Below, piece by piece: positions 12,163 to 18,290 of a DNA stretch of 64,000 nucleotides. The notes beneath the pieces were generated by a model. The model made no database searches, was not told where the DNA came from, and was given only the letters and a program-made list of their open reading frames with translations. Every line of letters begins with the position of its first letter. Position 1 is the stretch's first letter. Position numbers and translations under genes: made by a program. The stretch lies in sequence record CP089609.1, one strand, 5' to 3'. This stretch comes from a plasmid.

Positions 12163-12951
12163 TTAGACGGTGGTGCTGGACATCGATCGGTTCTTGATGT
12201 GCGCGGAGACGATGAACAGGGTCAGGGCACCGAAGAACGGCCCTGTCATGAGGCCGTCGATCCAGTTTTGGGTTCGTTCGGCGGTCATGAGTCCGTCGGC
12301 CACGGCGTGTTCGCAGACGTCGCGGAAGCCGAGAATTTTGTCGGCTTCGATTGCGTCGGTCCAGTGCGCCGTCACGGGATAGATCGAGTCGACGCTGAGT
12401 CCGGCCTCGTCGAGCAGCCGCGGCAAGGCCCTGCCGATCGTGGCATTGCGGATGACTTGCGCGACGACATGTCGGGTGTAGGAGTTGCTGAAGGCGGTGT
12501 CGGGGTGATCGATGACTAGCGTTGCCCAGTCCGGTTCGACGCAGACGATGCGGCCTTCGGATTTCAGGGTCCGGGCGGCTTCGGCGAGCACGGTGGGCGG
12601 CGTATGCACGTGTTGAAGGACGCGGTCGATGTGGACGCGGTCCACCGTGCCGGCTTCCAGGGGCAGCTGGTGGATGTCGGCCTGGACGGTCGACACCGTG
12701 GGTAGGTGGTTCGTGGAGTTCCCAGCATGGTTCAGAAGGGACTGGTCCTCGTCGATGCCGATCACTTTCCCGGTGCGGCCGGCGGCATCGGCGTAGGCGC
12801 GCAGATCCACTCCGGCGCCGCATCCGAGATCGACCACCACGTCTCCCTGTCGGATATCGAGTAGGGATTTCGCAAAGGCTTTGTAGCTTTTGCCTGTGGC
12901 CGAGTTGGCGATGTTTCGGAGGTAGTCACTGGGGGCGCCACGTCCAACCAT
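12163..12951 (-). CDS. class I SAM-dependent methyltransferase
   Basis: motif I VVDLGCGAG, acidic residue after beta2 (IGIDED). Confidence 0.75.
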   Translation of the reverse strand: MVGRGAPSDYLRNIANSATGKSYKAFAKSLLDIRQGDVVVDLGCGAGVDLRAYADAAGRTGKVIGIDEDQSLLNHAGNSTNHLPTVSTVQADIHQLPLEAGTVDRVHIDRVLQHVHTPPTVLAEAARTLKSEGRIVCVEPDWATLVIDHPDTAFSNSYTRHVVAQVIRNATIGRALPRLLDEAGLSVDSIYPVTAHWTDAIEADKILGFRDVCEHAVADGLMTAERTQNWIDGLMTGPFFGALTLFIVSAHIKNRSMSSTTV

Positions 12952-13064
12952 GGCCGGAACTGCGGTGGTTCCGTCAATGTCATCGTGCGCCTTTCATCTG
13001 AAGGGGTAGAGCTGGTTTTTCTTCTGCAGCGCATGATGATTCGGTGGTCGTCATCAGGGCCATG

Positions 13065-13864
13065 TCATTGCGGGTGGGCATGATCGTCACCGCCCCGAGT
13101 GCTTAATTGGTTCGCGCATCGGTGCTGCCGTCCTGCTCGGGAATTTCCGAGGGGGGGTGTGTCGATCAGATACTTCTGGAAGAAGGCGAAGGTTCGCTGC
13201 CAGGCGTCCTCGGCTTCGGGTGCCGAATAGGCGAATCCGGCAAGGGTTTCGACGATGGTGAACGGTGCGGGGATGCCCGACTTGTTCATGAAGCTGTGCC
13301 CGACGTTCGGGTATTCCTTGATGTCGCGATCGACGGAGCCTTTGGCCAGGACGGCCTCCAGCGCGCTGGCCGAGCCCTGTTTGACGATGCGGTCCTTGGC
13401 GCCGTAGCTGGCTACGACAGGGCATGAACGGGCTAGTGCATCAATGTTTTTGGGAGCCAGTCCGTATTGGGCTGCGGCCACGTCGAAGAGTCCTCGTGGC
13501 GAGAGTTGAAGGACGAAGCCGGCGCCCATGCAGAATCCGATCAGCCCGATCCGGCCGTTGCACCGGGGGTCGTCGAGCAGGTGGTTGCGCGCGGCGGTGA
13601 TGTCGTCGTAGGCATTGCCGTCATCGGCGAAGTGGGACCGAATGGTGGTGATCATGCACCTGGGTTTGAACCCTCGCCCGTACAGGTCGGGGCCAGAGCG
13701 AGATACCCTTCGCCGGCGAGGCGGTCGCTGATGCGCCGCAGATCCGCTGTCATTCCCCGCACGTCCTGGACGACCACGACGCCGGGCCAGGGCCCATCGC
13801 CTGAGGGTGTTGCCAGATACCCCGGCAAAGCGCCCGCCGGGGCCATGTAGGTGATGTTCGGCAT
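13065..13864 (-). pseudogene. dienelactone hydrolase-family protein split by a frameshift near 13660-13700
   Basis: the N-terminus (MPNITYMAPAG...GPWPGVVVVQDVRGMT) and the C-terminus (IGLIGFCMGAGF...YPNVGHSF) lie in different frames; the span is not a multiple of 3. Confidence 0.5.
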
Positions 13865-16063: not shown

Positions 16064-16137
16064 ACCTCCCTTGCGTCGGACATAGTCTACGACCGAGGCC
16101 TTCGGCGCCCCGGTGCCGAATCAGTGAAGGAACACCC

Positions 16138-18290
16138 ATGCAGACCGCTTACACCGCACGAGTTCTCGACCCAACCCAGCCCGGCGACAACGCCCTGCTC
16201 GACGAGCTCCGCGCCGACCCGACATCGACTTCCTCGACGACCACGACGCCCAGCTGGAAAGTCTGCGCGCACTTCGCCCCGCACCGCCCGAGGAGCTGCT
16301 GGGCGAAGATCGACGATGGGCCTACTACCCGTGGCGGCGTGCAGTCGTGGCTGTGCTCGGCCCGCGGGGATTTCAGGCATTGCGGCTCGATCGCAATCGC
16401 AACAACATCACGGCTGAAGAGCAAACCAGGCTCAGCACTCTGACGATTGGTGTGGCTGGTCTCAGCGTGGGCCACGTCATCGCCCACACGCTGGCCGCCC
16501 AAGGGCTCTGCGGCAAACTGCGCCTGGCTGACTTCGATCACCTGGAGCTGTCCAATCTCAACCGGGTGCCGGCCACGGTCTTCGACCTTGGCATCAACAA
16601 GGCCGTCGTCGCGGCCCGCAGAATCGCCGAGCTCGACCCCTACCTACCCGTCGAGGTGGTCGACACCGGCCTCAACGCCGACACACTCGACGACTTCCTC
16701 ACCGGACTCGACATCGCCGTCGAGGAATGCGATTCCCTCGACATCAAAGCCCTGCTGCGCGTCGCAGCCCGCGACCGCAAGATCCCGGTGCTCATGGCCA
16801 CCAGCGACCGCGGCATCGTCGACGTCGAACGATTCGACCAAGAACCCGAGCGCCCGATCCTGCACGGACTGCTCGGGCAACTCGACATTGATCTTCTGCC
16901 CGGCATGACCAGCCGCGAAAAGATCCCCCACGTGCTGCGTCATCTGGAAGCCGAACGCCTGTCGCCCCGCACCGCAGCATCCCTCATCGAGATCGACCGC
17001 TCCCTGTCCACCTGGCCACAGCTGGCTTCCGACGTCATCATCGGCGCGGCCGCGATCGCCGAAGCTGTACGCAGAATCGGACTCGGCGAAGAACTCCGAT
17101 CCGGCCGCAGCCGCATCGACGTCAGCTGGGCGCTGGGCCAGATCCACGAGCCCGACATGGCGCATCGCTACGAAACGACCACCGACGAGCCGAACACCCC
17201 ACAGGCTCTCACCGGCGGCCCACTCGAACACCTCGCTACAGCCGCCATGCGCGCGCCTTCCGGCGGCAACACTCAGCCCTGGCAGATCGCTCTCACCGAA
17301 GACTCCATCACGGTCGGTATCGACCCCGACCACACCTCGACCATGGACATTGAGTTCCGCGGCAGCGCCGTCGCCCTGGGTGCAGCACTGCTGAACATCA
17401 CGATCGCGGCCGCCGAACACCACGTGCTCGGCCCCATTACGGTCACCGATGCCGGCAGAGCGCCGCTGCAGGCCACTATGCGCACCACCGCCGGCGGCGA
17501 CGATCCCGCACTCGCGCGCCTTTACAAGCCCATGCTGGCGCGCGAATCCAACCGCCACCACGGGACCCCCAAGCCGCTCGACGACACCACCATCACAGCG
17601 CTCACCGCGGTGGCCGAACAGCACAACGCACGGCTGCGCCTTCTCACCCAGCGTGACGACATCGCCCAGGCCGCAACGATCCTCGCTGCGGCCGACCGGA
17701 TACGATTCCTGACCCCACGCCTACACCAGGAGATGATCTCCGAGCTTCGCTGGCCCGGCGACCCGGACCCCGACACGGGCATCGATGTCCGCAGCCTCGA
17801 ATTCGATCCCGGCGAGATGGCCGTCCTCGATGTCCTACGTCGCCCCGACGTCATGGAACAACTCGCCGAATGGGACGCCGGATCCGCACTCGGCGACGAC
17901 ATGCGAGACCGCGTCCTGGCCAGCTCAGCTCTCGCGGTCGTCACCGTAACCGGCAACGACCTACGCGCCTACGCCGCGGGCGGGTCAGCAGTCGAAGCCG
18001 TATGGATCGCCGCTCAACAACAAGGATTCGGCGTCCAGCCGGTATCCCCAGTCTTCCTCTACGCACACACACAAGCCGAACTCGAGGAACTCTCCGCGCC
18101 CTTCGCGACCGAATTGGCCGAATTGCAAAGCGAATTCAACATTCTGACGAACCTGGGACCAGACGAATCGATCGCCCTGATTCTGCGGCTGGCCGTCGCA
18201 CCGCCGGCATCGCTACCGAGCCGACGCAACATCAGCCGAGTACGTAGCGCAACGACAACAACCCACCCACTCTCCAAGGGACCTTGGTGA
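16138..18290 (+). CDS. ThiF/E1-like adenylyltransferase fused to tandem nitroreductase-like domains (MoeY/Rv1355c-like); -1 frameshift near 16220
   Basis: ATG 16138 with GAAGGAA RBS reads MQTAYTARVLDP...LRADP, then frame 0 continues DIDFLDDHDAQLESLR...IGVAGLSVG (GxGxxG)...PSGGNTQPW; the uninterrupted ORF is 16347-18290. Confidence 0.7.

Follow-up and report, generated by a model that had tools for sequence, protein, structure and literature searches.

A candidate mobile oxazolone synthesis and tailoring cassette without TrzA in mycobacterial-type plasmid DNA

What chemistry is encoded by an islet in which an E1-like adenylating enzyme, fused to a nitroreductase-like domain, lies beside a cytochrome P450, a TetR/AcrR-family regulator, an S-adenosylmethionine (SAM)-dependent methyltransferase (MT) and a hydrolase of the dienelactone hydrolase (DLH) family? 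The islet occupies positions 12163-18290 of a 64-kb stretch of plasmid sequence (record CP089609.1; hereafter the window), which is mycobacterial-type DNA with a guanine-plus-cytosine (GC) content of 61-68%. An earlier note on this sequence had read the islet as a small xenobiotic or secondary-metabolite tailoring module carried on mobile DNA. A scan of open reading frames (ORFs) combined with Pfam searches recovers all five of the genes that it listed, in the same order and orientation: the TetR gene converges on the P450 gene, the two 3' ends overlapping by 4 nt (14690-14693), and the P450 gene, on the minus strand, diverges from the plus-strand fusion gene. We put at roughly 0.6 the probability that the islet is the core of a mobile oxazolone synthesis and tailoring cassette that lacks the acyltransferase TrzA. 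The fusion enzyme is of a kind already known; what is new, and absent from the literature that we found, is its conserved tailoring and regulatory context and the existence of a mobile version without TrzA.

Judged from its sequence, the fusion protein very probably belongs to the TrzS/Rv1355c enzyme family. It scores 1021.1 bits against the NCBIfam 'Rv1355c family' equivalog model NF005901 (cutoff 476) over residues 2-704 of 717, and it shares 58% identity with Rv1355c of M. tuberculosis and 64.5% with the M. leprae orthologue. A ThiF/E1-like adenylating domain (PF00899, E 6e-23) spans residues 85-233 and aligns with the structures of ThiF, TcdA and MoeB. The proposed likeness to the Rv1355c/MoeY architecture also called for a nitroreductase fold in the C-terminal half, and this is borne out by a PF00881 (Nitroreductase) match of 27.5 bits (cutoff 23.5) and by the Acg-type flavin mononucleotide (FMN) oxidoreductase model NF047509, which matches residues 366-652 with an E of 1.7e-33 and a score of 116 bits, below that model's cutoff of 199.

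The chemistry of this family has been worked out in recent years by the Eltis laboratory. Rv1355c-Rv1356c was flagged in 2023 as a second oxazolone cluster beside tyzACB (PMC10404671). Rv1356c is TrzA, an L-tryptophan N-acyltransferase (Kleetz et al., J Biol Chem 2025; PMC12856293), and Rv1355c is TrzS, in which a ThiF-like, ATP-dependent cyclase and an FMN oxidase are joined in one protein; it converts N-acyl-Trp to N-acyl tryptazolone, an oxazolone lipid, by an obligate cyclization followed by an O2-dependent desaturation (PMC12856293). Activity has been demonstrated for the enzymes of M. smegmatis, M. tuberculosis and Rhodococcus jostii RHA1, and characterized TrzS members use N-acyl-L-tryptophan (PMC12856293). 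Heterocycle formation, which the earlier note had suggested from the pairing of domains, is thus the documented activity of the family, and the 'MoeY/molybdopterin' label is obsolete because the Rv1355c family is an oxazolone synthase; that established function, the absence of TrzA and the frameshifts in three of the genes had all escaped the earlier note. Since the characterized M. smegmatis and M. tuberculosis enzymes are themselves 55.4% identical (PMC12856293), an identity of 58% falls within the family's known functional spread. Mutagenesis has shown that Asp217, in the cyclase, and Arg540 and Gln651, in the FMN/oxidase part, are required (M. smegmatis numbering; PMC12856293). Mapped through the published mutagenic primers (VEEC[D]SLD, DRI[R]YLTP and SV[Q]PVSP), the equivalents are kept in the window protein as EECDSLD (D199, nt 16731-16733), DRIRFLTP (R523, 17703-17705) and GVQPVSP (Q634, 18036-18038).

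The cassette therefore resembles TrzAS (Rv1356c-Rv1355c) in its two-domain fusion, its overall identity and its conserved equivalents of D217, R540 and Q651. It differs in having neither trzA nor an adjacent GGDEF-EAL gene, in carrying a divergent P450 together with TetR, DLH and two MTs, and in being mobile; the M. tuberculosis locus runs EAL / TrzA (P0137) / TrzS / GAF-GGDEF-EAL / TetR / Rv1352. The sequence around the three mutated residues also differs from that of M. smegmatis TrzS, and at the peptides derived from the primers the M. goodii copy of the cassette agrees with the window and not with M. smegmatis TrzS. These differences point to a separate lineage: the cassette enzyme is probably distinct from the host's canonical TrzS, and may be present as a second copy in some hosts.

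More distant systems share parts of the same chemistry. TcdA/CsdL, the tRNA threonylcarbamoyladenosine dehydratase, also carries out, with ATP, the intramolecular cyclodehydration of a moiety that resembles an N-acyl amino acid. Its structures (PDB 4D7A, 4RDH) are among the closest solved ThiF-type sequences (E 3e-8), although its substrate is tRNA, it lacks a fused oxidase and the relationship is distant. TyzACB of M. tuberculosis (Rv2336-Rv2338c), which makes N-acyl tyrazolones, combines the same acyltransferase, ThiF-like cyclase and FDO-A nitroreductase-superfamily desaturase chemistry, but its cyclase and oxidase are separate proteins, it takes Tyr/Phe substrates with long acyl chains and its order of reactions is not obligate (PMC10404671). 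OxzB of Pseudoalteromonas rubra is likewise a ThiF-FDO protein that makes N-acyl oxazolones; the OxzAB system is proteobacterial, falls in another subcluster of the sequence similarity network, pairs OxzB with the acyltransferase OxzA and has no reported P450, DLH or MT (de Rond et al., bioRxiv 10.1101/2020.06.11.147165). The oxidase half of the window protein, finally, fits the model of Acg (Rv2032) at a score below its cutoff, and among solved structures MsAcg (PDB 2YMV) comes closest to the oxidase domain of TrzS (PMC12856293); Acg and its fellow DosR-regulon FMN-binding oxidoreductases Rv3131 and Rv3127 differ in that they are unfused proteins of the FDO-B group and have not been linked to oxazolone synthesis (PMC10404671).

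The case for tailoring rests on the company that trzS keeps. Loci were drawn from the best 80 of 239 relatives of the TrzS-like protein, taken at species level and all from Mycobacteriaceae; counts were made over the 63 loci whose flanks extend 6 kb or more on each side. The comparison found the linkage of Rv1355c-like genes to a P450 and to methyltransferases that the module proposed earlier would imply. A P450 (at least 50% identity over at least 300 amino acids; homologues 50-95% identical) lies within 8 kb of trzS in 50 of the 63 loci; near trzS there is also TetR in 30, DLH in 29 and a TPMT-like MT (at least 45% identity) in 16; for TrzA the figure is 34, and for a GGDEF-EAL gene 51. P450, TrzA or both lie within 8 kb of trzS at 62 loci (28 with P450 only, 22 with both, 12 with TrzA only), and one locus has neither. 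The reciprocal test agrees: all three loci picked through the P450 alone hold a ThiF-domain protein of about 710 amino acids, taken as trzS, within 3 kb.

This association persists through at least five arrangements of the P450 gene: divergent from trzS, on its strand and immediately upstream, on its strand and downstream, convergent with it, and directly downstream of trzA. In Mycolicibacterium arseniciresistens (L055 6562-12017) the P450 stop overlaps the trzS start (GTGA) and a GGDEF-EAL gene follows, and in M. intracellulare (L092 8204-15987) trzA, P450 and a TPMT-like MT form one same-strand run that converges on TetR-trzS-GGDEF/EAL. It appears from these gene orders that the P450 may be translationally coupled to trzS in some species and lie in the same run as trzA in others. 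The TPMT-like MT of the cassette has homologues that recur at chromosomal trz loci; TPMT-like MTs also occur at the trz loci of M. adipatum and of L093, as well as that of M. intracellulare, and at least three sequence types of methyltransferase stand beside trzS or the P450 in different clades.

Several further observations concern these loci. The genome-collection index lists the P450 of M. intracellulare in 778 blocks, so that this arrangement is common in that group. The near-complementary pattern of P450 and TrzA over the 63 loci (L007-L094) is unexplained by any current model, and at five loci (L055, L057, L062, L067, L080) the P450 takes the position that trzA has in M. tuberculosis, directly upstream of trzS on the same strand. 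Because of this pattern, and because the P450 occupies TrzA's operon position in some species, we leave open an alternative in which the P450 may supply substrate by a different route. Two paralogous trz-associated P450s and/or a second, partial TrzS-like fragment are found at L013 6521-14175, L050 10140-15465 and L038, which indicates local duplication and turnover at the trz locus. In M. leprae TN (L066 6936-11989), trzA (235 aa), trzS (721 aa) and the Rv1354c-like GGDEF-EAL gene (623 aa) appear intact; such a locus, in a genome that has undergone massive gene decay, hints at selection on the core oxazolone/cyclic di-GMP (c-di-GMP) locus.

The second element of our reading is mobility. The conserved unit extends beyond the islet as first described, to about 9.6 kb (11282-20911), and comprises in order g248, MT, DLH, TetR, P450, the TrzS-like gene, a variable spacer, the small genes g131 and g147, and a TPMT-like MT. 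Matching blocks of 600 bp or more, with 71-86% DNA identity, occur in M. goodii, M. senegalense, M. brisbanense, M. wolinskyi and two further species, and on a 153-kb MOBF plasmid of M. dioxanotrophicus, where the five islet genes keep their order. The flanks of the eight cassette copies (cl4 loci) have nothing of 300 bp or more in common, and the M. goodii copy sits among ordinary metabolic and housekeeping genes. For these reasons the block is likely to move as a unit, and the mobility supposed in the earlier note gains support from eight unrelated contexts, one of them a plasmid. Simple vertical inheritance at a single locus is ruled out by the same unrelated flanks. A repeat search over 11000-21300 gave short, chance-level matches only and no terminal repeats of the cassette. 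A search of PLSDB returned only the M. dioxanotrophicus cassette and an IS607 copy, with no match to a known plasmid backbone, and scans of the window for tRNAs and Rfam elements were negative.

How might the gene products work together? The P450 carries the expected motifs (haem-Cys FGGGPRSCIG, EALR, and AGHDTT in the I-helix) and scores 221 bits against PF00067. Its best solved relative, 7WZL, is about 40% identical and has no assigned function; neither the PDB, nor the literature on 7WZL/7WZM, nor a search of 5.8 billion proteins supplied a CYP family name or a function. Source annotations of its relatives read 'cytochrome P450' only, and its NCBIfam matches to CYP170A1-like and PtlI-like models are far below cutoff. 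The DLH matches PF01738 over its full length (169 bits, profile positions 2-217 of 217). Its C112 (in GFCMG), D158 and H190 align with the GFCFGG elbow, GAED and VAHSF of the DLH in 7JIZ and are taken, on this alignment, as a probable Cys-Asp-His triad; we assume that these positions are equivalent to the triad of ClcD, whose structure (1DIN) is among the listed structural matches. As azlactones, unsaturated 5(4H)-oxazolones are activated esters in ring form that bear an exocyclic double bond. The oxazolone products of OxzAB hydrolyze within hours at pH 8 (bioRxiv 10.1101/2020.06.11.147165), and unsaturated forms that were uncyclized were found in every strain in the tryptazolone work (PMC12856293). 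A cysteine hydrolase that opens or recycles the ring is chemically sensible, given this spontaneous hydrolysis and the uncyclized species.

If the islet is an oxazolone cassette, the ThiF/E1-like domain would activate an N-acyl aromatic amino acid at its carboxylate with ATP and close it to a 5(4H)-oxazolone, and the fused Acg-like FMN oxidase would desaturate the C-alpha/C-beta bond with O2, as in the characterized homologues. The P450 might then oxidize the substrate or the product, the DLH homologue might use its Cys nucleophile to open or recycle the unsaturated azlactone ring, a step that we infer entirely, and the two SAM-dependent MTs might contribute methylations. TetR would keep the divergent promoters repressed until some metabolite of the pathway builds up. 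The N-acyl amino acids would be drawn from the host, for example through a chromosomal trzA, or from some other acyl-amino-acid source.

The divergent P450/trzS spacer, put at about 75 bp in the earlier note, is indeed short, but measures 80 bp (16058-16137) once the P450 start is set at 16057, a start chosen from its Shine-Dalgarno spacing. Over the eight cl4 copies, whose proteins are 77-93% identical, this spacer has a mean column identity of 88%, and it holds an invariant -10-like box and a 20-bp palindrome; coordinated control of P450 and trzS, as earlier proposed, is accordingly plausible. A related -10 box and GC palindrome recur in more distant loci (cl3). The DLH-TetR spacer was previously taken to begin at 13995; the DLH start is at 13864, not 13994, and the spacer runs from 13865 to 14042. 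It is poorly conserved, its relatives carrying repeated CCAnnTGTATAG-like motifs. Here an inverted repeat, TCTCCAACTGTAG-N9-CTCCACTTGGAGA (13977-14011), overlaps the -35 element of a promoter-like site upstream of TetR (TGGAGA, a 17-nt spacer and TATTAT; 14006-14034) that ends 8 nt before the TetR start. The palindrome at 16101-16120 and this repeat are candidate operators, to which we would provisionally assign promoter and operator roles from their form and position. The two are not alike. A single TetR operator common to both spacers was considered and rejected: the window has a single copy of the palindrome, and conservation of the DLH-TetR spacer is poor. The TetR protein has no detectable homology to M. 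tuberculosis Rv1353c (no tblastn match in L088).

A number of results weigh against an oxazolone cassette. A TrzA hidden Markov model (HMM) built from about 110 homologues found no TrzA homologue when run on the 64-kb window translated in all six frames (best E 2.2); tblastn and the HMM, run on six-frame translations, found none in any cassette copy; and hhalign comparison with the TrzA profile shows g248 (probability 0.5%), g131 and g147 to be unrelated to it. A TrzA partner is a feature of the pathway, not a criterion of the protein family. Without TrzA, nevertheless, the cassette alone would be unable to make an oxazolone from a free amino acid, and N-acyl amino acids must therefore come from the sources suggested above. 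The trz loci of M. tuberculosis and M. leprae consist of TrzA-TrzS without P450, DLH or MT, and because TrzAS alone makes tryptazolone, the extra genes are dispensable for the core chemistry. No experiment or publication was found that connects oxazolones with this P450, DLH or MT: the papers on trz and tyz (PMC12856293, PMC10404671) mention no P450, hydrolase or methyltransferase, and a search of the literature for moeY with P450 gave nothing relevant. Our linkage frequencies are biased upward, because the 80 loci are those most similar to the window protein among the 239. Finally, three of the five islet genes are frameshifted in the window assembly; if the frameshifts are real, the cluster is dead in its source strain.

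Some of these points would also suit a generic islet for xenobiotic or stress detoxification, in which TetR senses a foreign compound and the TrzS-like gene is a mere neighbor or acts on the same compound. TetR, a P450, an alpha/beta hydrolase and a SAM-dependent MT make up a common detoxification set, the cassette lacks TrzA, and it lies in accessory DNA with toxin-antitoxin, Fic and PIN genes. A generic islet of this kind does not, however, fit the constancy of the association: the P450 stays by trzS or trzA through at least five rearrangements and in 50 of 63 loci, with a stop/start overlap in one case and a trzA-P450-MT run in another; trzS is accompanied by a P450, TrzA or both at 62 of 63 loci; and P450 and trzS have in common a single divergent control region that is highly conserved. 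We therefore regard detoxification as unlikely. In the alternative posed by the earlier note, tailoring survives and xenobiotic metabolism is the less likely half.

A different objection is that the islet is a decaying, non-functional remnant. In the window, the MT lacks one nucleotide of a G run at 12930, which puts its first 33 bp out of frame and leaves an apparent ORF of 262 aa; the DLH frame is broken by a 1-nt deletion in a G run at 13688; and in the TrzS-like gene the ATG at 16138 lies in frame 1 and the long ORF, from its first start codon at 16347 to its end at 18290, in frame 0, the switch falling near 16217 with a 1-nt deletion in a C run. The 717 aa given for the fusion protein in the earlier note is thus the right length of the intact protein in other assemblies, but the window holds no uninterrupted ORF of that length. 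If these frameshifts were genuine, MT, DLH and the TrzS-like gene would be pseudogenes in the source strain; they are present in the sequence as given, and DNA rich in insertion sequences (IS) is prone to decay. Comparison with near-identical genomes makes this quite improbable. All three are 1-nt losses in G/C homopolymers, and four more of the same kind fall within the 19.3 kb shared with one assembly (L001), where 7 of 10 indels are such losses and always shorten the window. Against another (L003), 9.7 kb show five indels and one substitution. The three genes are unbroken in at least five independent assemblies that are 99.9% identical to the window (L001-L006; the MT is intact in L001, L003 and L004), and a protein search located P0001, the unbroken 717-aa protein, on 11 contigs that come from independent sequencing runs, with 688 of 688 aligned residues identical. 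One-directional indels confined to homopolymers are a signature of long-read error, and we accordingly treat the genes as intact; the frameshifts in MT, DLH and the TrzS-like gene most likely reflect base-calling error in homopolymers, not pseudogenization. Relative to the near-identical assemblies of short-read type, single-base G/C-homopolymer undercalls occur at 7781, 12930, 13688, 16217, 19667, 21541 and 21810, the fifth of them a frameshift in the C run of g131. With undercalling this systematic, any apparent pseudogene in the window is suspect, and homopolymer errors in this assembly create false ones.

That the fusion protein is instead a sulfur-carrier adenylyltransferase of molybdopterin or thiamine synthesis ('MoeY'), or an azoline cyclodehydratase and dehydrogenase acting on a ribosomally synthesized and post-translationally modified peptide (RiPP) in the manner of thiazole/oxazole-modified microcins (TOMM), is highly improbable and largely refuted: it has a ThiF/MoeB-type domain, E1-like and FMN dehydrogenase pairings are known in TOMM systems, and one NCBIfam match of the P450 is to the RiPP P450 ApyO, far below cutoff, but MoeB and ThiF equivalog models reach only 50-67 bits against cutoffs of 152-449, and two characterized Rv1355c-type members use N-acyl amino acids. 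Membership of ThiF (NF006395, 64.7 vs 159), MoeB (NF004281, 54.7 vs 266) or MoeZ (31 vs 647) was rejected on these scores. No ThiS/MoaD sulfur carrier or rhodanese domain occurs among the Pfam-labeled neighbors in L001, L090 and L007, and a YcaO domain is likewise missing from the genes called in the cassette and in its relatives; no search was made for a precursor peptide.

The features of the cassette are collected in Table 1. Among its smaller genes, g248 shows a weak IrrE/ImmA-like signal (Peptidase_M78, Pfam E 0.0099) with an HQIGH motif. It has homologues in four cl4 loci, and an M. goodii gene of 230-237 aa in the same position, with no Pfam match, aligns with it at the DNA level. Pfam searches gave no significant match for g131 and no match for g147. 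The MarR-like gene lies in a variable segment (18293-19233) that is absent from the blastn matches of the other cl4 loci.

Table 1. Genes and control elements of the cassette, in window coordinates; signal and promoter assignments are predictions.
Feature	Position	Strand	Basis or remark
g248, 248 aa	11282..12028	-	left end of cassette; gene call in L001 mapped onto window
Class I SAM-dependent methyltransferase (MT), 273 aa intact	12163..12983	-	Pfam Methyltransf_11/25/31, UbiE-like
DLH-family alpha/beta hydrolase, 266 aa intact	13065..13864	-	PF01738, E 1e-49
TetR upstream control region, candidate autoregulatory operator	13977..14034		inverted repeat and promoter-like site
TetR/AcrR-family regulator, 216 aa	14043..14693	+	PF00440, E 8e-14; divergent from DLH
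Cytochrome P450, 455 aa	14690..16057	-	PF00067, E 3e-65
Divergent P450/trzS control region, 80 bp	16058..16137		alignment of 8 cl4 loci
P450 Shine-Dalgarno site	16065-16070		CCTCCC
Invariant -10-like element	16075-16089		GTCGGACATAGTCTA with overlapping -10-like TAGTCT/TAGACT boxes
20-bp palindrome, candidate operator	16101-16120		TTCGGCGCC-CC-GGTGCCGAA (TTCGGCGCC-N2-GGYGCCGAA); perfect in one relative
trzS Shine-Dalgarno site	16126-16131		GAAGGA
TrzS-like oxazolone synthase (Rv1355c family), 717 aa intact	16138..18290	+	NF005901, PF00899, PF00881, NF047509
Small MarR-like winged-helix protein	18358..18714	+	Pfam MarR_2, weak, E 2.6e-4
g131, 131 aa	19313..19707	+	kept in 7 cl4 loci
g147, 147 aa	19741..20184	+	kept in 7 cl4 loci
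Second SAM-dependent methyltransferase, TPMT/TehB-like, 225 aa	20234..20911	+	Pfam Methyltransf_25, TPMT; right end of cassette

The surrounding DNA is accessory in character. Two IS607-family elements of about 2.7 kb, each with a serine recombinase and a large TnpB-like protein, lie at ~6664-9402 (+) and ~57365-60096 (-); they are 92% identical and inverted, and because they bracket about 48 kb that includes the cassette, the whole may form a composite transposon. A further match to the element is an IS607 on the M. abscessus plasmid NZ_CP065286. An IS200/IS605-type pair occupies 37975-39545, where a minus-strand TnpB (OrfB_IS605, 388 aa) overlaps a 137-aa plus-strand ORF that is probably TnpA; a relative of it adjoins the cassette in M. 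wolinskyi (L075 12497-13837). Accessory or defense-like genes at 22247-23251, 24352-25275, 27998-28611, 34421-34711, 44352-45041 and 45570-46748 include PIN-domain, Fic and SIR2-family genes, two toxin-antitoxin-like pairs and a 392-aa protein that ends in Lsr2 dimerization and DNA-binding domains. An 824-aa ORF in a GC-rich stretch (30395-32869, 67%) has no Pfam match and may be spurious, or may encode a repetitive or novel protein.

What mycobacterial oxazolones do physiologically has been named as an open question (PMC10404671, PMC12856293), and tryptazolones have escaped detection in M. tuberculosis itself (PMC12856293). Returning to the oxazolone cassette, a broader reading can be entertained, which we hold tentatively and consider rather doubtful as a whole: that in most non-tuberculous mycobacteria the trz pathway goes beyond a simple N-acyl tryptazolone, and that a dedicated, co-inherited P450, Cys-hydrolase and methyltransferases turn tryptazolone, or an alternative precursor not derived from TrzA, into an undescribed modified oxazolone or dehydro-amino-acid metabolite. 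The linked TetR would sense this metabolite, with a tie to the adjacent c-di-GMP enzymes, and the version without TrzA would be a self-contained cassette that crosses species and is fed by the host's pool of N-acyl amino acids.

The P450, the hydrolase, the methyltransferases and TetR are in any case testable candidates for the missing downstream chemistry of oxazolones and for their regulator and its ligand. The clustering of trzS with a P450 extends to M. intracellulare, a species of the M. avium complex. If our interpretation of the islet is right, the cassette without TrzA would show that an oxazolone module is exchanged horizontally among mycobacteria, plasmids included.

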